Positions 184 through 12,531 of a stretch of DNA of 16,507 nucleotides are shown here, one piece after another. The notes beneath the pieces were generated by a model that saw nothing but the letters and a program-made list of their open reading frames with translations, searched no databases and was not told the origin of the DNA. The stretch is from IMG/VR virus record IMGVR_UViG_2740892442_000006. One strand, written 5' to 3'. The DNA comes from a virus (lineage: Duplodnaviria > Heunggongvirae > Uroviricota > Caudoviricetes). Position 1 is the first letter of the stretch. Each line of letters opens with the position of its first letter. The translations under genes and the position numbers were made by a program.

Positions 184-218
184 CTGACAGTCCGCTCTGT
201 GCCAGAAGCGGACGTTAG
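184..218. repeat. Palindromic repeat, copy 1 (internal hairpin GTCCGCT-N10-AGCGGAC)
   Basis: Read directly: CTGACAGTCCGCTCTGTGCCAGAAGCGGACGTTAG. The 7-bp arms at 190-196 and 207-213 are exact reverse complements. An inverted copy lies at 4194-4228 and a partial direct copy at 3007-3023. Confidence 0.7.
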
Positions 219-288
219 CCATAGTGAATAATGCACAATGCAGTGACTGGATACAGATATGGGAAACTATTACTTTTAAAGTCCGACA

Positions 289-316
289 TTCTTGATTCTT
301 GATTCTTGATTCTTGA
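289..316. repeat. Tandem heptamer repeat (TTCTTGA)x4, followed by a degenerate fifth unit TTACTTA at 317-323
   Basis: Read directly: four perfect head-to-tail copies, about 120 bp upstream of the ORF at 435. Confidence 0.9.
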
Positions 317-434
317 TTACTTAATCTAAGTAACCGTGCATTTTTATCCAGCTTCAACTATCCAATGAACCAGTATGTTCTGTAACATAAAAGCAGGCTA
401 TTTAGCCACAATCAATTGATAATTAGGCACTTAT

Positions 435-1487
435 ATGAAACTAAAAAAAATGCTTGAAATGGATTTCATCAAGGAGTTTCAAGAGCACCTAGAAACTGAC
501 TTTGAGCATGAACTCTTACATGCCAGTCTTCGCAACTATTGTTCTCATGGTAATCCTCTGCGCTTCAACAACTTTGCATTTGCAATACGTGAGCTAATAA
601 ATCATGTGCTGAAACGACTGGCACCAAATGACAGAGTTATGGCGTCTCCATGGTTCACTAAAAACAAAAATAACGCCACTGTTACCCGTAAACAGCAAGC
701 AAAATACATCGCCCAGAAGCATATACCCGATCAACTTCTTGATGATGTAGCTATCGAAAGACTAGATGATGGTATAGCATGGTTCAATAAAAACTATTCT
801 TCTTTAAACGATTACACCCATATTAGCGAACATTCATTTGATAGTAACCCCAAACAGTTTTTTGAGAGTGCTAAACTAATAATAGAACTGTGTAACATAA
901 TATTCGATACCTTCGATGAACTTGAGCGTGTTATTACCGAATCAATAATCGAGGAAGTACAGAATGAAGTTACTGACATCACAATGAATAATATCCCTGA
1001 CGAACTGGATATATTATCTTCACAAACAACTGTTGATTGGTGCAATGTTGAATCCATTGAGTTGCTGAACCTTGACGAAAATTATATTTATCTTTTGGTG
1101 CGCGGAATAGTTGAAATTACTAGGCAATACGGGCGTGGTGAGGATTACTTTGCACAGCAAGATTCTTATCCCTTCAAGTTTGCAGTCTCTATTCGCACTG
1201 ATAATTTCAATTTAATAGCACCATTACTTAACACTGTAGTAGTGGATACAGGCTCATGGTATGACGATGGCGAAGGATCTGCTCATTATGACACAATTTA
1301 TACAACCTCCAGATTTTTGGAGATGATCTCACATATAAAAATTAAACCAAAAACAAAGAGAAGATTGTTTCCTGAGCTTAGTACAGTAGTAACACTAGGG
1401 ATTCATGAAAGTGAAGGTATATCAGAATCGGTCGTCCCAGAAATATGTCATCTAAATCAAGGAAGCTTCAATTTAACTGAATTTTAG
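435..1487 (+). CDS. Hypothetical protein (cargo ORF A, 350 aa); no family recognised; contains an R-x4-H motif (RNYCSH, residues 33-38)
   Basis: Long ORF with an ATG start and a weak AGG upstream; first gene of a co-directional cluster in the AT-rich island. No ATPase or other catalytic signature recognised. Confidence 0.75.
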   Translation: MKLKKMLEMDFIKEFQEHLETDFEHELLHASLRNYCSHGNPLRFNNFAFAIRELINHVLKRLAPNDRVMASPWFTKNKNNATVTRKQQAKYIAQKHIPDQLLDDVAIERLDDGIAWFNKNYSSLNDYTHISEHSFDSNPKQFFESAKLIIELCNIIFDTFDELERVITESIIEEVQNEVTDITMNNIPDELDILSSQTTVDWCNVESIELLNLDENYIYLLVRGIVEITRQYGRGEDYFAQQDSYPFKFAVSIRTDNFNLIAPLLNTVVVDTGSWYDDGEGSAHYDTIYTTSRFLEMISHIKIKPKTKRRLFPELSTVVTLGIHESEGISESVVPEICHLNQGSFNLTEF

Positions 1488-1503: not shown

Positions 1504-2442
1504 ATGAAAATGTCTAATAAGATCTATAGCCTACAAAGAATGCCTACTGAAGCATTTAAGATATTTGCAATGTCATTGCCACATGGGCCTAATTATGGTA
1601 ATGCGGAATTACTTTCCGCTTGGTCAAATGAAAAAGGGCTTGGATATGGTGCAGTCCTTCAATACAGCAAAAATTCATATGGCCTTGTTGTGCTCAGGCG
1701 ACGGGAAGATTATGTGCTGGTACCTCTCGAGCATGAGATGTGTTTTACCGAGCAGGAGGCATTGGTGCATCTTGATAAGCACCTTTCAGCCGGAGGAGAT
1801 TTATTACCGATTCCATCTGGGCAATCACGTAGAGCCCGACTGGATCATGTTGGTGAGCGGAATGTTTGTCAGGCATTTATACAATTATCGTCCACGATAA
1901 AGTACCGAGGAGCATTTCATTTAATTGTCGAGCTCTATCTGGCATTACCAAAACCTGATGATAACTTCAGAACCGATCTCCAGACCCAAGGATTCAACTC
2001 TAGAATCTGGGAGCTATACCTTTTCGCATGTTTTAAAGAGCAGGGAATTAAAGTTTTTCAAGATTATCCATCTCCGGATTTTATGCTCATGAACGGTAAT
2101 AACAAAGCATATGTTGAGGCGGTCACCGCGAATCCAACTGGTCCGGGCAGCCTAAAGTTGCCTCAAACACAATTCCCCCCCGGAGATCGATTAGCTCGCA
2201 CAGCAGGTGATATGGCAGCACGGTTCGCTAAGACCATCAGATCTAAACTCCAGAGAAAGTATGAAGAACTACCGCATGTTAAAGGATTTCCATTTGCAAT
2301 CGCTATAGCGGATTTTAGCGGTGGGGGCACTATGGTCTGGTCTCGCGAGTCACTTCCAACCTATTTGTATGGGCAAACCGCACATACAGTCAAAACATCC
2401 AAAGGTATGAAGCTGCTGCATTATCAATTGAAAAGCTTTTAG
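1504..2442 (+). CDS. Hypothetical protein (cargo ORF B, 312 aa); family unknown
   Basis: ATG at 1504 preceded by GGAGAG at 1496-1501, 16 bp after the ORF A stop. The downstream frame-0 ORF overlaps its 3' end, so B and C may be one gene split by a frameshift. Confidence 0.75.
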   Translation: MKMSNKIYSLQRMPTEAFKIFAMSLPHGPNYGNAELLSAWSNEKGLGYGAVLQYSKNSYGLVVLRRREDYVLVPLEHEMCFTEQEALVHLDKHLSAGGDLLPIPSGQSRRARLDHVGERNVCQAFIQLSSTIKYRGAFHLIVELYLALPKPDDNFRTDLQTQGFNSRIWELYLFACFKEQGIKVFQDYPSPDFMLMNGNNKAYVEAVTANPTGPGSLKLPQTQFPPGDRLARTAGDMAARFAKTIRSKLQRKYEELPHVKGFPFAIAIADFSGGGTMVWSRESLPTYLYGQTAHTVKTSKGMKLLHYQLKSF

Positions 2443-2504
2443 GCCATGTAAATATTCCGGCAGGACTATTTAACCACCCAGAGATTGAAAATTTATCTGC
2501 TATC

Positions 2505-2903
2505 TTGTTTAGTAATGCTGGAACATTGCCAAAATTCCAGCGAATGGCAATCCAAGCTGAATTTTCCTCACCTATTGTGAAAGCCCGCAGGGTTGGGATT
2601 TTATTTGATAGGACTGAAGGGGCCTTGGAACCAATTGACTTCGATCTAGATATTCAATCGCCTGAATATATTAATCTTTGCGATGGCAAAGAATTTTGGT
2701 GTTTTGAACTTGAAGTATTTCATAACCCTAATGCTGCTTATCCAATGTCCCATGATTTCCTGCCGGGGGCAACACATTGGTTTGAACACAATGGAGAGAT
2801 CATCTGTGAGACCCAATGGAAAAACCAGGTACTTGCATCAGTAACCGAGTTTAGTATTGTTCCAGATGTCGCCGATAAACTCAAAGCCAAGGAAAAGCCG
2901 TGA
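2505..2903 (+). CDS. Hypothetical protein (cargo ORF C, 132 aa as listed); possibly the C-terminal continuation of ORF B
   Basis: The frame is open from 2319 and reads like protein (...YEAAALSIEKLLGHVNIPAGLFNHPEIENLSAILF...), but has no ATG/GTG/TTG before the TTG at 2505 and no convincing Shine-Dalgarno before 2505 or the ATG at 2544. Confidence 0.5.
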   Translation: MFSNAGTLPKFQRMAIQAEFSSPIVKARRVGILFDRTEGALEPIDFDLDIQSPEYINLCDGKEFWCFELEVFHNPNAAYPMSHDFLPGATHWFEHNGEIICETQWKNQVLASVTEFSIVPDVADKLKAKEKP

Positions 2904-3006
2904 TTGCTTGATGCAAGCATATTCTTGAAAGAAGAAAATTGACAAGATTTAAAACTAATAATGAAGGGGGGAATGTTACGAGGTTGTCAGGGCTGCAACA
3001 GCAGCC

Positions 3007-3023
3007 CTGTGTCAGAAGCGGAC
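3007..3023. repeat. Partial direct copy of the palindromic repeat (CTGTGTCAGAAGCGGAC), just after an 8-bp-stem hairpin at 2988-3009
   Basis: 16 of 17 bases match copy 1 at 197-213. Hairpin CAGGGCTG-caacag-CAGCCCTG read directly. Sits between ORF C and the ORF at 3080. Confidence 0.6.
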
Positions 3024-3079: not shown

Positions 3080-4033
3080 ATGCCAAAGAAAAGACGGTCT
3101 ATTAGCCAGGTAAAAGAAGACATTTCAATCAGGGTTCTGCGGGAAAAACTACCTCGCGAATGGGTCGTACATAGCTATGGCGCTGACTATGGTATTGATT
3201 GCGTTGTTGAATTATTTGATTTTATTGATGACAGTGAAAGTATTGCAGAAACCCTTGGTGAAAACTTCTTTGTACAACTAAAATCTTCAGATTGTATTGA
3301 ATATTGTACACGTAAAGCCTATGCTCGTGGAAATGTAACCAAAGGAAAGTTAACAGAAGATAAAAGCGATTTTGTCGAAATCCCTGTCGCAAAATTCAAG
3401 TTAGATATATCAGACATTTTGACTGTTCAGTCTATAGGTATTGCAATTCCAGTATTATTGATACTAGTTGACACTAATACAGAAAAGGCATTTTTTATTT
3501 GCCTTAATGATTACATAGATAAAGTTCTCATACCAGAAGACCCGAATTATTCTAAAAAAGACTCAAAGACTATATATATACCTCTTGAAAATGAAATTCT
3601 GGATGATGAAGATGCGCTTGTTCCATTACGTGCATATGGTAAAAGATCAAAAATGTATGGCGCATTCTCACTTTTTAACTATCAATTAAAAGAAATAAAC
3701 CGATTACAAGGTAAAGCGGCCGTACAATTTCCTGTCTCTTTCGATGAAGCTATAGAGATGGTAAATAACTTTATTGTAATTGCTCTTAGACAAGATATAT
3801 GGTCTGGTCATGAATTTTGGAAGCCGATGGTATCGAGCCAAAAGGAGTTGATCCAACTTCAAATAGATATTGATAAAGAGGTAAAACCTGAACATTATGA
3901 ACATTTTTTGAGTTACTGTTCCGAAGTGGTTTGGCATAAGTTAACAAATCTTTCAAATATGTATGAGGAGCTTGTTAGAGAATGGTTCATGCCAACCTTG
4001 CTAGCGACATTAACATCAGCCCGCCCTAAATAA
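3080..4033 (+). CDS. Hypothetical protein (cargo ORF D, 317 aa) with an N-terminal PD-(D/E)xK-like nuclease-fold motif candidate (DUF4365-like by recollection)
   Basis: Strong RBS AGGAGGT at 3068-3074, six nt before the ATG. N-terminal motifs in order: DYGID, VVELFDF, FVQLKSS, consistent with a D...E...QxK restriction-endonuclease-like core. Family assignment is from memory, not a search. Confidence 0.8.
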   Translation: MPKKRRSISQVKEDISIRVLREKLPREWVVHSYGADYGIDCVVELFDFIDDSESIAETLGENFFVQLKSSDCIEYCTRKAYARGNVTKGKLTEDKSDFVEIPVAKFKLDISDILTVQSIGIAIPVLLILVDTNTEKAFFICLNDYIDKVLIPEDPNYSKKDSKTIYIPLENEILDDEDALVPLRAYGKRSKMYGAFSLFNYQLKEINRLQGKAAVQFPVSFDEAIEMVNNFIVIALRQDIWSGHEFWKPMVSSQKELIQLQIDIDKEVKPEHYEHFLSYCSEVVWHKLTNLSNMYEELVREWFMPTLLATLTSARPK

Positions 4034-4193: not shown

Positions 4194-4228
4194 CTAACGT
4201 CCGCTCCTCGCTCAAAGCAGACTGTCAG
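4194..4228. repeat. Palindromic repeat, copy 3, inverted relative to copy 1
   Basis: The reverse complement of 4194-4228 matches 184-218 at about 30 of 35 positions, by hand alignment. A further ACTGTCAG motif lies at 4253-4260. Confidence 0.65.
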
Positions 4229-4293: not shown

Positions 4294-5397
4294 TTAGCCT
4301 TTTTTAATTTTATTTTTAGATTGTTCAATGTGATGATTTAACACTTCTCTCTTTGCCTCTTCATAGGTTAGCTCTCCATTGATTACCTTATTTTTTATTT
4401 CATTAAAAAATGAGGAGCCTTTGGGATCTTTACTTGATAAAAAAAGACTGGCTTCAGCTCTCCGAAAAGCTTCTTTCCTTGCTTCTATAGAAAATGAATT
4501 AGCAGGGTTATTTTTGTTCATAAGTTGAAGTGCCTTATTATTTATATTCGGGATGTTTTTATCTACAAGAGTTAGTCTTAACTCCGAGAATTTATTTCCT
4601 GATATTTTATAACACTGATTTTCATTTTTTTCAATATAAAGAGATTTGCTTTCTGCGCTACCACATGTCGTAGATGTTCTTGCATCAAGAAAAATAAACT
4701 TTTCTTGAAATCTTTCAATATATTTCATTGCTGTCATGCTAATAATAAAAAGAGCAACTGACACAGCAAAAAGGGATAAGCCTGATACTAAACGATTAAA
4801 ATTAAATTTCCTTTTAATAACTAATGAACTGGCTAGATTGACCATGTTATAGGGGACCATAATTATGAGTCCTATTAATATTATTTTTTCAGGAAGATTG
4901 TTCACTTGTATATGATGTTGAGCCAAGTTTCCAATATATACTGAAATCATAGAGGATATTACTATTTTTGCTGGGGATACATCTCGCAAAAATATGTATA
5001 TATAGACTGTAGTTGCACAAATCATTGCTCCTATTGGAAATGAGAGCATGAAAGCATAAGCTAATGTTGAGTAATTAAGATTTTCTGGGGCTATACCATA
5101 AGCTATGTCAAGCTTAAACTTTGCGATCCATAAGCATACTGAATATGTAAAGCCAGTTACGCCCCACTTAACCACTGTATTATTAAATACTTTATTTAAT
5201 AAATCACGATATCCTATGTATACACTGGTTAATAAAGCTATAGATGATAGAAAAATTGGAGCGGCAATGTATATATTTTCTAGCCATAATGGGTTTTCTA
5301 CAATCAAGTATCCAAAAGGTATTAAGTATATTATAGCCAATAGTTGAGGGTTGTTTAATTTGGATGATGCGTCAACCAAATTATTTTTATATTCCAT
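4294..5397 (-). CDS. Multi-pass inner-membrane protein (about seven hydrophobic segments in the N-terminal ~225 aa, then a ~140-aa charged soluble C-terminal domain); function unknown
   Basis: 367-aa ORF with AGGA about 7 nt upstream of the ATG. Starts 9 bp after the stop of the integrase at 5407-6480, on the same strand. Very AT-rich. Confidence 0.8.
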   Translation of the reverse strand: MEYKNNLVDASSKLNNPQLLAIIYLIPFGYLIVENPLWLENIYIAAPIFLSSIALLTSVYIGYRDLLNKVFNNTVVKWGVTGFTYSVCLWIAKFKLDIAYGIAPENLNYSTLAYAFMLSFPIGAMICATTVYIYIFLRDVSPAKIVISSMISVYIGNLAQHHIQVNNLPEKIILIGLIIMVPYNMVNLASSLVIKRKFNFNRLVSGLSLFAVSVALFIISMTAMKYIERFQEKFIFLDARTSTTCGSAESKSLYIEKNENQCYKISGNKFSELRLTLVDKNIPNINNKALQLMNKNNPANSFSIEARKEAFRRAEASLFLSSKDPKGSSFFNEIKNKVINGELTYEEAKREVLNHHIEQSKNKIKKG

Positions 5398-5406
5398 ATA
5401 ACGTCC

Positions 5407-6480
5407 TTATTTCAACTTTAACGCCAAATCTTCAGCTTTTGGATGATAATACCGCATTAGCATTCTTGGATCTTTATGTCCTGTAATTTTGGTCAGTTCA
5501 TGCATAGGGAAAATTTCAGCAAGTCGAGAAGTTGCTTCATGTCGAAGGTCATGAAATCTTAAATCTTTAAGGAATGATTCATCACATAATGAGTTTGTTT
5601 TCTCGTATCGTTCTCTGGCTCGTTTTACAGCTCGGTCAAAAGCTCGGGTAATCGCGTCTGCACGCATATCAAAAACCTTATCAGCAGCTGGCTTAGAATG
5701 TTCCTTGAGACTGGACAGTATCGTGATGGCTTTCGTTGATAAAGGGACATCGCGGGCATTACCATTCTTAGTATCCGGCAGATGTGCAACTCGCCGATCA
5801 AGATCGATAAAGCGCCATCGAAGATCTGCGATTTCGCTACGGCGCATGGCTGTCTCTAACGCCAGAAGAATGATTGCTGGCAATACTAATGAATGTGTTG
5901 CGGCGATGATATGTTCGATCTCGTTGGCTATTTCCTTTCCTGACGTAACACCGGTTTTCTCAGAAACTACAGGCAGCGCTTCCAGGCGTCTGGTCCTGGA
6001 GTTCTTGGGTTGAGGTTTGCGAATGGCCTCTACGGGGTTCAGCAGGCTCTCCATGCCCCATTCTTTCCGCGAAACGTTGAATACATGAGAAAGTAAGGCC
6101 AAACGCCTTAAAACGGTTGCAGGGGCATAGATTTTCAACCATTCATCTCTCAGCTTGGCGACATCGGCACTCCTGATGCTGGCCATATAGTTTTTCGCCA
6201 GCTGAGTGCCTTTTAGTATCCGCACCAATGATTGGTCTTGCACTGCCCCTTTTTTGTCGGGAACAATCTCTTTTTCATATCGCGTTAGGGCTTCATACAA
6301 TGTCGTAGATTCCGCTTCGCTGCGGCTAAGCCAAACTCCTCTCGCCATTTCTGACTCGATCATTTTGGCCCAAGCTTCTGCTTCTACTTTGGTGTTAAAG
6401 GTTTTGGTTTGAGAGGGAAAACCTCGTTTACGGATTTGAGCTTCCCATTGGTAGTTACCACGTTTGCGTATAGTCGCCAT
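5407..6480 (-). CDS. int: Tyrosine-type site-specific integrase (island integrase)
   Basis: C-terminal catalytic signature FHDLRHEATS...MRYYHP (H-x-x-R-H box and tyrosine). The ORF track starts at a TTG at 6510; the ATG at 6480 (MATIRKRGNYQWEAQIRKRG...) is the more likely start. Confidence 0.9.
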   Translation of the reverse strand: MATIRKRGNYQWEAQIRKRGFPSQTKTFNTKVEAEAWAKMIESEMARGVWLSRSEAESTTLYEALTRYEKEIVPDKKGAVQDQSLVRILKGTQLAKNYMASIRSADVAKLRDEWLKIYAPATVLRRLALLSHVFNVSRKEWGMESLLNPVEAIRKPQPKNSRTRRLEALPVVSEKTGVTSGKEIANEIEHIIAATHSLVLPAIILLALETAMRRSEIADLRWRFIDLDRRVAHLPDTKNGNARDVPLSTKAITILSSLKEHSKPAADKVFDMRADAITRAFDRAVKRARERYEKTNSLCDESFLKDLRFHDLRHEATSRLAEIFPMHELTKITGHKDPRMLMRYYHPKAEDLALKLK

Positions 6481-6568
6481 TTCTGTCTGATTCCTAACGA
6501 ACTGTGGCAATATTGTGGCAAAAAATCCATTTAAATTCGATAGGTATTGATTTTACAAGATCAATTTA

Positions 6569-6617
6569 CGCATTCGTAATGCGAAGGTCGTAGGTTCGAC
6601 TCCTATTATCGGCACCA
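6569..6617 (+). tRNA. 3'-terminal 49-nt fragment of tRNA-Thr (anticodon CGU); not a complete tRNA; likely an att-core direct-repeat copy
   Basis: Anticodon stem-loop with CGT at 6575-6577, T-arm GGTTCGACTCC, 3' acceptor strand and CCA. Matches the 3' part of enterobacterial thrW as I recall it. The upstream sequence has no 5' acceptor strand (GCCGATA) or D-arm. Confidence 0.8.
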
Positions 6618-6631
6618 TTTAAATCAATAAG

Positions 6632-7795
6632 TTACACATCATTAGTACCTTCCTTATTTTTTGACTGGGACAAATTTGGGACCGATGGGTTCAGGATCGA
6701 GTCTATTTGCCGTGCGTGTTCGGTAAGGTGATTAGGTGCAAGGTGAGCATATCGACGAACCATTTCGATAGACTCCCACCCTCCCATTTCCTGTAACACT
6801 GACAACGGGACTCCGGCTTGAACCAGCCAACTTGCCCAGGTGTGTCTCAAGTCGTGAAATCTGAAATCATCAATACCAGCCCGTCTCAGCGCCGCTTTCC
6901 AGGCTGTGTTTGCGTCATACCGCATCTTCCTTACTGTTGGCGCTTTCGTTCCGTCTGGTTTGGTACAGCTTTCCTTGTACACAAATACCCAACGGTGATG
7001 ATTCCCGATTTGTTTTTTCAATACGCGACATGCAGTATCATTCAGCGCAACGCCAATTGCGCGGTTTGATTTACTCTCTTCCGGGTTTATCCATGCCACC
7101 CGGCGCTGCATATCTATTTGTTGCCATTCAAGGTTGATGATGTTCGAGCGTCTTAAACCTGTTGCCAGTGCAAATTCAACAACAGACTTTAATGGCTCCG
7201 GACATTCATCAATCAGCCTTTGTGCTTCATGGGGCTCCAGCCAGCGGATCCGTTTATTCTTTGGTTGAGGCACTTTAATAATTGGTGCCTTATCCAGCAT
7301 TTTCCATTCACGCTCTGCGGCTCTTAGTAGGGCCTTTATAAATGAAAGATGCGTAGCCTTCGTTGCAACGGACGCTGGTTTTGGCGTGTATTCTGGAACA
7401 GGTTTCCCTTTTTTTCTGCATGCTTCTGCCCTGAGTTTCCAGTTTTCCTCATGACGCCGGTTCGTCATTTTCTGCATTGCTGAATAAATTTTTGATTCAG
7501 TAATGTCTCTTAGTTGCATTCCTGCGAAATGTTGAAGCCAGAATCCGATCCGGCTTTTGTCATCGTCCAGTGATTTTTTATGTGCTTTCTCTTCAAGCCA
7601 CCTGACACACGCTTCCTCGAACGTTATATCAGGTATTTCACCAAGTTTGCTGACCCGCCATGCTTCAGCCTTTAGCTTGTCATGGAGTTCTGTCGCCTGC
7701 CTTTTGTCCTTTGTTCCAAGAGACTGTTTAAATCTTTTACCGTTCGGCAATGTGAAACTGGCGTACCATATTTCACCTCTGCGGAAGAGTGACAT
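6632..7795 (-). CDS. int: Lambdoid (P22/SfV/e14-type) phage integrase
   Basis: N-terminus [34 protein letters not shown] is typical of this enterobacterial prophage integrase group; catalytic [10 protein letters not shown]...VRRYAHL. GAGGAA RBS. The 3' end lies 15 bp from the tRNA-Thr fragment. Confidence 0.92.
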
Positions 7796-9678: not shown

Positions 9679-10674
9679 GTGACCGTGAGAGCACTACTGA
9701 CCCCTGAAATAGCCCCGCGTATGGGGATCGTATTGTTCAGACCCGGTTCAGAGCTGATGCCCCTGTTTATGCAGGGGCGTGTCCTGCTGGAGCCTGAGCC
9801 GGAACGTTATTCATCTTTCGCCAGTGGTGCCGTTCCCGCGGCATCACAACCGCTGGCGGATGATCCTGCCGTTCGAGCCGTGTTCTGCAATGAGGCAGTG
9901 ATCCGTCGTGCTGGTGGCGTGGAATGTCTTGAAAGCTGGTTACTTCGTGAAAAGGGCTGTCAGTGGCCTCATTCCGACTGGCACAGCGAGAACATGACCA
10001 CAATGCGACACGCGCCGGGCGCGATCCGTCTGTGCTGGCACTGCGATAACCAGCTGCGCGATCAGTTCACGGAACGGCTGGAATCAATGGCAACGGATAA
10101 CTGTGCCCGCTGGGTGTTGTCTGTTGTGCGTCGGGATCTCGGTTTTGATGACAGTCACGTTGTGACAATGCCGGAACTGTGCTGGTGGCTGATTCGTAAT
10201 GACCTGGCGGATGCCTTACCGGAAAGTGCAGCCCGTAAGGCACTGAGATTACCGAAGCCTGTTGTGCCGTCTGTCACCCGGGAAAGTGACCTTGTGCCTT
10301 CGGTTCCTGCCACCAGCATCATCCAGGATAAGGCGAAAAAGGTGCTGGCGCTGAAAGTGGATCCGGAGTCGCCGGAGTCTTTTATGTTACGCCCAAAACG
10401 TCGCCGCTGGGTTAATGAAAAGTACACGCGCTGGGTTAAGACACAGCCGTGTGCATGTTGTGGAAAGCCTGCTGATGATCCCCACCACCTGATAGGCCAC
10501 GGTCAGGGTGGGATGGGTACAAAAGCGCATGACCTCTTTGTGTTGCCTTTGTGCAGAAAGCATCACGACGAGCTGCATGCGGATACCGTGGCATTTGAAG
10601 AGAAGTATGGCTCCCAGCTGGAGCTGATATTTCGTTTTATCGATCGTGCGCTGGCAATAGGCGTACTGGCGTAA
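9679..10674 (+). CDS. Prophage protein with a C-terminal HNH-like Cys/His cluster (DUF968-like)
   Basis: 331-aa ORF with a GTG start. C-terminus CACCGKPADDPHHLIGHGQGG...CRKHHDELH is a zinc-finger/HNH-type signature. Sits immediately upstream of Q, as in the nin region of lambdoid phages. Confidence 0.65.
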   Translation: MTVRALLTPEIAPRMGIVLFRPGSELMPLFMQGRVLLEPEPERYSSFASGAVPAASQPLADDPAVRAVFCNEAVIRRAGGVECLESWLLREKGCQWPHSDWHSENMTTMRHAPGAIRLCWHCDNQLRDQFTERLESMATDNCARWVLSVVRRDLGFDDSHVVTMPELCWWLIRNDLADALPESAARKALRLPKPVVPSVTRESDLVPSVPATSIIQDKAKKVLALKVDPESPESFMLRPKRRRWVNEKYTRWVKTQPCACCGKPADDPHHLIGHGQGGMGTKAHDLFVLPLCRKHHDELHADTVAFEEKYGSQLELIFRFIDRALAIGVLA

Positions 10675-10687
10675 GTGGAGAACGAGC

Positions 10688-11416
10688 ATGAACCTTGAAG
10701 CTTTACCAAAATATTACTCCCCAAAATCTCCAAAATTGAGTGATGACGCACCGGCGACAGGCTCGGGTGGTTTAACAATTACAGATGTGATGGCTGCGCA
10801 GGGGATGGTGCAGTCGAAAGCACCGCTTGGGTTTGCCTTATTCCTGGCAAAAGTTGGTGTTCAGGATCCTCAGTTTGCGATTGAAGGTCTGCTCAATTAC
10901 GCGATGGCACTGGATAACCCGACATTGAACAAATTGAGTGAAGAAATCCGGTTACAGATCATCCCTTACCTTGTGAATTTTGCCTTTGCTGATTATTCCA
11001 GGTCTGCGGCAAGTAAGGCTCGCTGTGAGCATTGTGCTGGTACTGGATTTCATAATGTATTGCGCGAGGTGGTGAAACACTCCAGAAGCGGGGAATCTGT
11101 TATCAAGGAAGAGTGGGTGAAGGAACTATGTCAGCATTGTCATGGTAAGGGAGAAGTCAGCACAGCGTGCAGAGGGTGTAAGGGTAAAGGTATTGTCCTG
11201 GATGAAAAAAGGACCCGGCTTCATGGCACGCCTGTTTATAAGATTTGTGGGCGTTGCAATGGAAACCGATTTAGCCGTTTACCAACCACACTGGCGCGGA
11301 ATCATGTCCAGAAGCTGGTACCAGACCTGCCGAAGATCTGGGAAAAGTCACTTTCCGCCCGTCCATCACGGCTTATGTGGTGGGAGATGACTGCTTTGAC
11401 CAGCGCGATCGCCTGA
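10688..11416 (+). CDS. Q: Late-gene antiterminator Q homolog (lambda Q family); C-terminus probably altered by a deletion junction
   Basis: N-terminus MNLEALPKYYSPKSPKLSDD...TDVMAAQGM parallels lambda Q as I recall it, followed by CxxCxGxG zinc-finger repeats. The last ~30 codons overlap an N-like reading frame. Confidence 0.75.
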   Translation: MNLEALPKYYSPKSPKLSDDAPATGSGGLTITDVMAAQGMVQSKAPLGFALFLAKVGVQDPQFAIEGLLNYAMALDNPTLNKLSEEIRLQIIPYLVNFAFADYSRSAASKARCEHCAGTGFHNVLREVVKHSRSGESVIKEEWVKELCQHCHGKGEVSTACRGCKGKGIVLDEKRTRLHGTPVYKICGRCNGNRFSRLPTTLARNHVQKLVPDLPKIWEKSLSARPSRLMWWEMTALTSAIA

Positions 11417-12531
11417 TTGACGCGCTGAATAAACCCGGTCCCGGCACGCTTGTCCACCCGACATACGGTGAGTTGAAAGTCTGTGTTGACGGGGAAGTTC
11501 GGGTCAGCACATCGAAGAGTGAAGGGCGTATTGTCCGCTTTGACCTGAAGTTTGTCGAAGCGGGAGATCTCTCTTACCCCACATCAGGCGTGGCGACGGC
11601 GCAGACGCTGATGTCATCCTGTTCTGCACTGGATGACTGCATCAGTGACAGCTTCAGCGGTTTCAGTATCGATGGCGTGGCAGATTTTGTGCAGAACGAC
11701 GTCGTCGGTAATGTCGGCACAATGCTTGGGTATGTTTCTGATGCGATGAAAGTGGTGGATTCTGCCGTATCGGATGCCGCCAGGCTGTTGCAGGGGGATA
11801 TCTCGGTACTTCTTCCGCCGCCATCGTCAGGCAAAAATTTCGTTGAGCAGGTGCAGAAAATGTGGCGTACCGGGAAACGCCTTTATGGTAACGCCAGCGA
11901 CCTGGTCACCATGATCAAAACGCTTTCCGGTGTCAGCCTTGGCAGCGATCTGCAACCGCGCGGCGTCTGGAAAACGGACAGTAAAACCACCGCCACGGCG
12001 ACGCAGCAGCGTAACGTGGTTGCCAGCACCCTTCGTACGACCGCAATCAGCGAAGCGGCGTATGTCGTCACACGATTGCCTGCGCCCACAACTTCCGCGG
12101 TGATGCAGAATGCCACAGTGGGGCAGTCAACAACACCCGCGCAGAGCACCGGCTGGCCTTCTGTCACGCATCCGGCACTGAACAATGCACCGGCGGTGAA
12201 AAACACGGTTGACCTGCCAACGTGGGAAGAACTGACCGACATTCGCGACACACTGAATACGGCAATTGATAAGGAGTTGTCCCGTACAACCAGTGATGCG
12301 CTGTTTCTGGTGCTGCGCCGGGTGAAAGCAGATCTGAATGCGGATATCAACACGCGCCTTGAACAGTCTGCACGGATCATTCAGCGCACGCCGGATGAGG
12401 TTTTACCCGCGCTGGTGCTGGCGGCGACCTGGTTTGATAACGCGGCGCGTGACGCGGACATTATCCGGCGTAATGCCATTACGCATCCCGGCTTTGTGCC
12501 GGTGATCCCTCTGAAGGTGCCAGTGCAATGA
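11377..12531 (+). pseudogene. Mu gp43 (N)-like DNA circularization / tail protein, 5'-truncated
   Basis: Similar in length and position to Mu N, but about 100 residues shorter than I recall for the family. The frame is open from 11275 and overlaps the Q 3' end. GTG start only. Stop overlaps the next start (ATGA). Confidence 0.6.

Follow-up and report, generated by a model that had tools for sequence, protein, structure and literature searches.

A polymorphic heptanucleotide array in the leader of a mobile defense cassette of Escherichia coli

The cassette, its boundaries and its surroundings

The stretch of DNA considered here, referred to as the window, comprises 16,507 nucleotides of the E. 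coli chromosome, and the same 6.6 kb is found in eight complete RefSeq genomes at 99.6-99.96% identity. Toward its left end lies a group of defense genes that is bracketed by hairpins and preceded by a perfect tandem array of the heptamer TTCTTGA, in the following arrangement:

184..213, plus strand: left boundary hairpin, ctgacaGTCCGCT-ctgtgccaga-AGCGGAC (hairpin search and comparison of loci)
289..316, no strand assigned: perfect heptanucleotide array (TTCTTGA)x4 (sequence and Tandem Repeats Finder; orthologous arrays have 1-7 units)
435..1487, plus strand: pPIWI-associating nuclease, the first cargo gene (pP_pnuc_1 and pP_pnuc_2, Pfam E=1e-34 and 5e-17; PADLOC Aga_Nuclease E=1e-58)
1504..2903, plus strand: PD-T7-1-like defense gene (PADLOC PD-T7-1 E=3.8e-83 for the intact copy at locus L001; 464 aa in other copies)
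3000-3023, plus strand: degenerate hairpin copy (hairpin search)
3080..4033, plus strand: DUF4365 protein (Pfam)
4199..4222, minus strand: right boundary hairpin, an inverted copy (hairpin search)

The first two genes form a conserved pair, which we observe in E. coli, on Rts1, in Moellerella and Rahnella victoriana, and on a metagenome contig. PD-T7-1 is an anti-phage system with experimental validation (PMC9519451), and the pair may represent a two-gene variant of it. Nuclease homologues of 67-77% identity stand alone in Serratia P2-prophage hotspots and in Klebsiella; protein-pattern and DNA-pattern scans of the GTDB representative genomes returned no close relatives of the nuclease gene, and the phage collection gave no match. 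The DUF4365 gene, with the degenerate hairpin copy at 3000-3023 before it, constitutes a cassette of its own, which loci L050, L052, and L054 lack. Pfam and PADLOC detected no DNA-binding domain in the cassette proteins or in the 70-aa protein encoded upstream, and within the cassette they identified nuclease and defense domains only.

The defense cargo is enclosed by an inverted pair of hairpins of about 30 nt, ctgacaGTCCGCTCTGTGCCAGAAGCGGAC on the left and GTCTGCTTTGAGCGAGGAGCGGAC inverted on the right. Elsewhere the same pair encloses other cargo: at L033, which shares the ICE backbone, it flanks Shedu; at L032, a P2-like prophage, a SIR2 protein; in another island (L031), a hypothetical protein together with a DUF4365 protein; and in Klebsiella (L026), a nuclease homologue. 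It is present as well at L050 and L052-54, and it brackets cargo in IncT plasmids. Of 5,426 complete E. coli genomes, 1,932 (approximately 36%) contain the hairpin element, and none of them annotates it. Where the same ICE holds other cargo, the junction between backbone and cargo falls at the 3′ end of the hairpin (in L033, right after GCGGAC); where the same cargo lies behind a different left flank (context B), the junction is the 5′ edge of the hairpin core. From this comparison of loci the hairpins look like a site of cassette exchange, possibly the process that Nilsson et al. 2004 (Mol Biol Evol 21:1) reportedly described for P2 morons. This hairpin-bracketed context, with its varied defense genes distributed over ICEs, P2-like prophages, and plasmids, may be a more valuable lead than the array itself.

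Relative to the left hairpin, the heptamer array belongs to the cargo, and it moves together with the nuclease operon. Array and operon are present together in the ICE-like island at the tRNA gene thrW, at a second chromosomal context (L009-11, L016-20, and L055-62), in a prophage-like viral contig (L050), and on plasmids, namely Rts1, Moellerella pW65-a, and a Rahnella plasmid.

Beyond the window, the upstream region contains TraJ, TrbJ, and TrbL remnants of the ICE-like island, along with Hachiman, AbiJ, and other defense genes. Downstream of the cassette lie a VbhA-like gene, a gene for a 296-aa protein, and an integrase gene (5407-6480, minus strand), followed by a 3′ fragment of thrW and then by a second integrase gene (6632-7795). 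The segment at approximately 6566-6617 is what we take to be the 3′ part of tRNA-Thr thrW (…GCGCATTCGTAATGCGAAGGTCGTAGGTTCGACTCCTATTATCGGCACCA); RefSeq carries a 112-nt "tRNA-Ser" annotation at this fragment, and neither ARAGORN nor Rfam reported a tRNA at ~6566-6617. If this identification is right, the fragment marks an attachment site common to the ICE-like island and the adjacent prophage. That prophage is defective, with yfdR/S/T-like genes, a DUF968 gene, antiterminator Q, and Mu-like baseplate genes. Within its part at 9679-12531, the lambdoid regulatory genes DUF968 (9679-10674) and antiterminator Q (10688-11416) stand beside a gene for a protein that matches only positions 55-88 of the 88 in the model of the Mu-type DNA-circularization N-terminal domain, and the Mu-like baseplate genes come after this partial protein. 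The layout is that of a putative deletion-derived defective prophage related to CPS-53/KpLE1 (yfdR/S/T).

Other strains (in the series L065-L074) carry quite different cargo in the same ICE slot, between the genes for the 75-aa VbhA-like and the 70-aa proteins: LysR, LysE, aldo-keto reductase, MarR, and MFS genes, a histidine phosphatase with an acetyltransferase, and an AAA_15 ATPase system. The hotspot is thus not limited to defense genes.

The array and its variation among cassette copies

The four TTCTTGA units occupy positions 289-295, 296-302, 303-309, and 310-316, and TTACTTA comes next at 317-323; according to Tandem Repeats Finder, the array spans 288-318, with period 7, 4.4 copies, 100% matches, and a score of 62. 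It lies in the noncoding leader between the hairpin repeat at 190-213 and the ATG at 435 that opens the ORF 435-1487, with 118 nt separating the end of the array from that ATG. The original prediction, which described four exact heptamers between the first repeat copy and a start codon about 120 bp downstream, is thus accurate in both sequence and placement, and what it called a degenerate fifth unit corresponds to TTACTTA, which can now be described more fully as also being the left arm of a palindrome at 317-333.

The expected number of perfect 4x7 arrays in 16.5 kb of such composition is 4e-9 to 1e-8, and period-7 self-matches reach 24 nt in the window as compared with at most 10 nt in 500 shuffles, so that the array cannot be attributed to chance; arrays of this kind arise solely via duplication. 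The window contains no other short tandem repeat (unit of at most 12 nt, at least three perfect copies), and 158 kb of related loci contain none with a 4-12 nt unit apart from a trivial CCTA x3. A search of IMG/VR for (TTCTTGA)x3 gave 18 matches, two of which are the same cassette; since the other 16 are unrelated repeats in unrelated contexts, the TTCTTGA unit is not a recurrent motif. The leaders of other cassettes bounded by hairpins, and those of distant nuclease homologues, yielded no repeats.

We counted units in 28 distinct cassette copies of at least 98% identity, anchoring each count on identical flanks, and obtained the following distribution:

3 units: 6 copies (L016, L017, L019, L050, L056, L060)
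4 units: 11 copies (the window, L001, L004, L018, L037, L065, L009-11, L020, L055)
5 units: 4 copies (L002, L005, L057, L062)
6 units: 6 copies (L003, L006-8, L064, L068)
7 units: 1 copy (L063)

The differences in length are always exact 7-nt steps between identical flanks. The distribution of unit numbers is broad and unimodal around 4, every number from 3 to 7 is seen with no helical phase preferred, and none of the 28 E. coli-type copies has fewer than three units. Each main context has several alleles, the ICE 4-7 units and the second chromosomal site 3-5. Copy number is therefore anything but invariant across strains, and the earlier proposal that it changes by slippage holds for these near-identical copies: slipped-strand variation between isolates is confirmed.

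Outside this group the array is shorter. On Rts1 and the Moellerella plasmid (approximately 96% identical), two units are followed by TTACTTA, and in the Rahnella victoriana plasmid and the metagenome contig (approximately 90-94%), the corresponding sequence is TTCTTGA-TTAGA-TTGCTTA, a proto-repeat with a single unit, which is carried by L012 and L053. These orthologues with one or two units, at 90-96% identity, have intact genes for the 350-aa and 464-aa proteins. More distant nuclease genes (in Rahnella, Serratia, and Klebsiella) have no homologous sequence at the array position and no repeat there, so array length is not conserved among orthologous loci.

Among 20 full-length copies, 3,966 nt of sequence with the array removed contain 19 SNP columns, and parsimony mapping of unit number onto the SNP haplotypes requires at least seven changes when the polytomy is resolved favorably and nine when it is left unresolved. 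Two haplotypes each include more than one allele: L007 (six units) and L063 (seven) share one, and L020 and L055 (four units) share another with L062 (five). Most SNP-identical groups are nevertheless uniform in unit number, as in the case of the window, L001, and L037 (all four units) and of L003 and L006 (both six). With at least seven unit-number changes set against 19 SNPs in about 4 kb, the array is approximately 1,500 times as mutable as the average nucleotide of the cassette. At a per-site mutation rate of ~2e-10 per generation, slippage would then proceed at roughly 1,500 x 2e-10 = ~3e-7 per generation, an estimate to be taken as an order of magnitude only. Classical contingency loci change at 1e-5 to 1e-2 per generation, and a rate of ~3e-7 would resemble that of a slow VNTR more than that of such a locus; the uniformity of most SNP-identical groups is consistent with this slow pace.

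Five examined cassette copies carry an insertion sequence or a frameshift in the nuclease or PD-T7-1-like gene:

The window: frameshift
L002: IS1
L016: 1-nt insertion
L057: 1-nt insertion
L059: IS3-family element

These lesions indicate that natural loss of function of the cassette does not depend on the array. They suggest that the genes are costly or under relaxed selection, although some of the 1-nt indels are perhaps sequencing errors.

Elements next to the array and candidate functions

Three further elements of the leader adjoin or overlap the array:

255..287, no strand assigned: 33-nt invariant block AGATATGGGAAACTATTACTTTTAAAGTCCGAC, directly 5′ of the array (alignment)
299..327, plus strand: weak sigma-70-like site, consisting of TTGATT (299-304), 17 nt, and TAATCT (322-327) (PWM scan)
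317..333, no strand assigned: perfect 7-3-7 palindrome TTACTTA-ATC-TAAGTAA (DNA fold, alignment, and Rts1 junction)

The 33-nt block is identical at all 33 positions in L012, L052, and L053, where the adjacent gene shows 86-94% identity at third codon positions; for the most diverged pair, the chance of observing no change in the block is approximately 0.006. Because it is invariant where neutral sites differ by 6-14%, the array adjoins a constrained noncoding element. Two hexamers of the form TAnnnT lie within the block, TACTTT at 271-276 and TAAAGT at 277-282, by virtue of which it may belong to a real promoter, in which case the array would lie at the start of the transcript. It is probably part of the promoter or operator of the nuclease operon, and an altered distance between it and the downstream sequence could matter. 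More than anything else, it is this block that lends some weight to a modulating role for the array.

The palindrome directly downstream has a history of its own. On Rts1, an IS5 element is inserted at CTAA within its equivalent (L054, ~3768-3850 and 5001). In the clade of L012 and L053, two adjacent palindrome pairs have changed to G-U wobbles, which are valid pairs on plus-strand RNA only and give a weak hint that the region may be transcribed rightward. A different palindrome that overlaps this one, TTAGATT-GCTT-AATCTAA, is found in the sister clade.

A consensus promoter scan of positions 116-434 found no sigma-70 site, and the weak site recovered with the PWM scores 9.4 bits, which is not significant given that the best scores of shuffled sequences have a median of 8.5 and a 95th percentile of 11.9. 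Its -35 hexamer, TTGATT, straddles units n-2 and n-1, which means that the site exists only at three or more units, and from three through seven units its geometry is identical. A threshold effect between two and three units is conceivable on this basis. We rejected the possibility of a promoter-spacer switch, since a PWM scan of synthetic alleles with n=1-6 found nothing other than TTGATT-17-TAATCT, unchanged at n>=3 and at the level of shuffles. The array does not lie between a -35 and a -10 element, and with the same geometry at all lengths from three to seven units, the observed variation cannot work as a -35/-10 spacer switch.

A role as a frameshifting repeat inside an ORF was likewise rejected: all plus-strand frames are closed by TGA within three units, and no reading frame holds the array. 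Open frames on the minus strand do not exceed 65 aa, have no ATG, and extend through sequence that depends on the genomic context. Nor did structure in RNA or single-stranded DNA offer an explanation, as none of the folds considered is better than those of shuffled sequences (minus-strand RNA at 186-330, z = +0.6; plus-strand leader at 330-450, z = -0.7; single-stranded DNA at 270-340, z = -1.1). The consensus fold of six leaders contains no compensatory pairs, and Rfam gave no match close to the array at E values up to 1.

With respect to the classes of repeat to which the array might belong, it has in common with contingency loci that it is a perfect short-unit tandem repeat with whole-unit differences between isolates. 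All the features of neutral VNTRs that sequence comparison can reveal are present, namely unit-step polymorphism, lineage-specific expansion from a proto-repeat, and a length that is not conserved. Of the features expected for iterated heptad operators or centromeres, there is neither a cognate DNA-binding protein in the cassette nor conservation of the array among orthologues.

Origin of the array and competing explanations

The reading that we favor, at a probability of roughly 0.6, is that the array is a near-neutral heptanucleotide microsatellite (VNTR) which replication slippage both created and keeps polymorphic. An ancestral proto-repeat, TTCTTGA TTAGA TTGCTTA, would have given rise to the two perfect units of Rts1 and Moellerella, and slipped-strand mispairing would have extended these to the 3-7 units of the E. 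coli lineage. Mismatch repair is poor at correcting loops of 7 nt. The resulting variation would most likely be close to neutral and a side effect, not an on/off switch that evolved as such; at most, the array might tune a weak promoter by way of the adjacent 33-nt block and the -35-like hexamer TTGATT that is present at three or more units. Counting against neutrality is the biological attraction of phase-variable control for defense genes that are costly.

Intergenic VNTRs without known function are common in enterobacteria, for example the MLVA loci STTR6, STTR9, and STTR10 of Salmonella Typhimurium (PMC5183578). These are the closest parallel in likely biology, as they too have short units, lie in intergenic or prophage DNA, and vary in unit steps between close relatives. 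The present array differs from them in being shorter, in its location in the leader of a defense cassette, and in being far slower, with at least seven changes per 19 SNPs within 4 kb as compared with about one change per seven genome-wide SNPs at the MLVA loci. If the array is only a microsatellite, it would serve as a handy high-resolution marker for tracing the cassette between mobile elements, and little more.

The strongest competitor, which we regard as possible though distinctly less probable, holds that unit number tunes or gates transcription of the defense operon, making the array an expression modulator or contingency element. Such an effect could arise by three routes: the array might supply a -35 hexamer, with expression on at n>=3 and off at n<=2; unit number might shift the distance or helical phase between the 33-nt block and a downstream core; or, if transcription starts in the 33-nt block, unit number might alter the 5′ UTR. 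In keeping with this proposal, unit-step variation occurs in both genomic contexts, the invariant block adjoins the array, and the combination TTGATT-17-TAATCT exists at three or more units only, a number that all 28 of the E. coli-type copies attain. There is also precedent in the hmw1A and hmw2A genes of Haemophilus influenzae, where 7-nt repeats located about 100 bp upstream vary between 13 and 38 units and have an inverse effect on expression (Dawid et al. 1999, as reported in PMC2651432). In form this is the closest of the known systems, sharing the 7-nt unit, the noncoding position about 100 bp before the start codon, and a copy number that varies between strains; the hmw arrays differ in being longer, with 13-38 units as against 3-7 here, and in that their effect on expression has been demonstrated.

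Several observations weigh against modulation by unit number. The promoter-like site is no better than those in shuffled sequences and does not change over n=3-7, and all unit numbers from 3 to 7 occur, no helical phase being preferred. Orthologues with one or two units keep the operon intact, the array is short and its inferred rate low, and inactivation in nature has come about through IS elements and frameshifts. We consider it rather doubtful that the array is a genuine contingency element through which an anti-phage cassette, costly to its host, would be stochastically tuned or gated, either because three or more units supply the -35 of the promoter or because unit number fixes the spacing to the invariant 33-nt block. 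The cassette would then be a phase-variable defense module that takes a switch of its own along between ICEs, prophages, and plasmids.

E. coli is not known for repeat-based contingency loci, and no use of such loci for immunity is known among enterobacteria. If unit number affects expression, the array would stand among the few instances of repeat-mediated control in E. coli; a defense cassette with its own stochastic throttle, if true, would bear on how the cost of bacterial immunity genes is managed. The closest parallel with respect to host is neuO, of the CUS-3 prophage in E. coli K1, in which a heptanucleotide repeat within the ORF switches translation by frameshifting (PMC9659370, citing Deszo et al. 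2005). The two have in common an E. coli host, a 7-nt unit, location on a mobile element, and slipped-strand variation. In neuO, however, the repeat lies inside the ORF, whereas the present array is intergenic and no frame crosses it.

Much less likely is a function as iterated sites for a small repressor or centromere-binding protein that binds cooperatively, in the manner of omega (ParB) of pSM19035. The array resembles the omega arrays in its contiguous 7-bp units, with 3-7 direct heptads beside the palindrome at 317-333, and in pSM19035 a functional parS requires at least four contiguous heptads (PMC9499535). The omega arrays, however, mix heptad orientations, show conservation, and are accompanied by a nearby gene for their cognate ribbon-helix-helix protein; the present array has none of these properties. 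No ribbon-helix-helix, helix-turn-helix, or other DNA-binding domain is present in the cassette proteins. The array, moreover, follows its cargo into unrelated backbones (the ICE, the second chromosomal site, the prophage-like contig, and the IncT plasmid), which makes a backbone-encoded binding partner unlikely, and there are orthologues with only one or two units. The TTCTTGA heptad is presumably unrelated to the omega site, another point against a binding array.

Slighter still are the prospects of the array being part of a minus-strand product, whether a small RNA or a short ORF that unit number would throw into a different frame. All three minus-strand frames are open through the array, among them a 65-aa ORF with a TTG start at 160-357, and a promoter-like sequence, TTGATA-16-TAGATT, is present in L012 and L052. 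That sequence, however, is degraded in E. coli, where it scores 6.5, and the frames, none exceeding 65 aa or having an ATG, cross the hairpin into sequence that varies with context; the missing Rfam match and the RNA fold with z = +0.6 against shuffles speak against a small RNA.

It is scarcely credible that the variation is an artifact of assembly or sequencing: although three private 1-nt deletions in the window suggest some sequence error, lengths differ by exact multiples of 7 nt, and do so across many independent complete genomes as well as metagenome assemblies, unit numbers agree within haplotype groups, and the arrays span merely 21-49 nt.

These private deletions, located after positions 405, 2411, and 4532 and seen in no other copy that covers these sites, are either assembly errors or true pseudogenization. 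The deletion after ~2411 splits the PD-T7-1-like gene into ORFs at 1504-2442 and 2505-2903, one deletion fuses the VbhA-like ORF and that of the 296-aa protein into a single ORF at 4294-5397, and one falls in the leader hairpin GGCTATTTAGCC(C).
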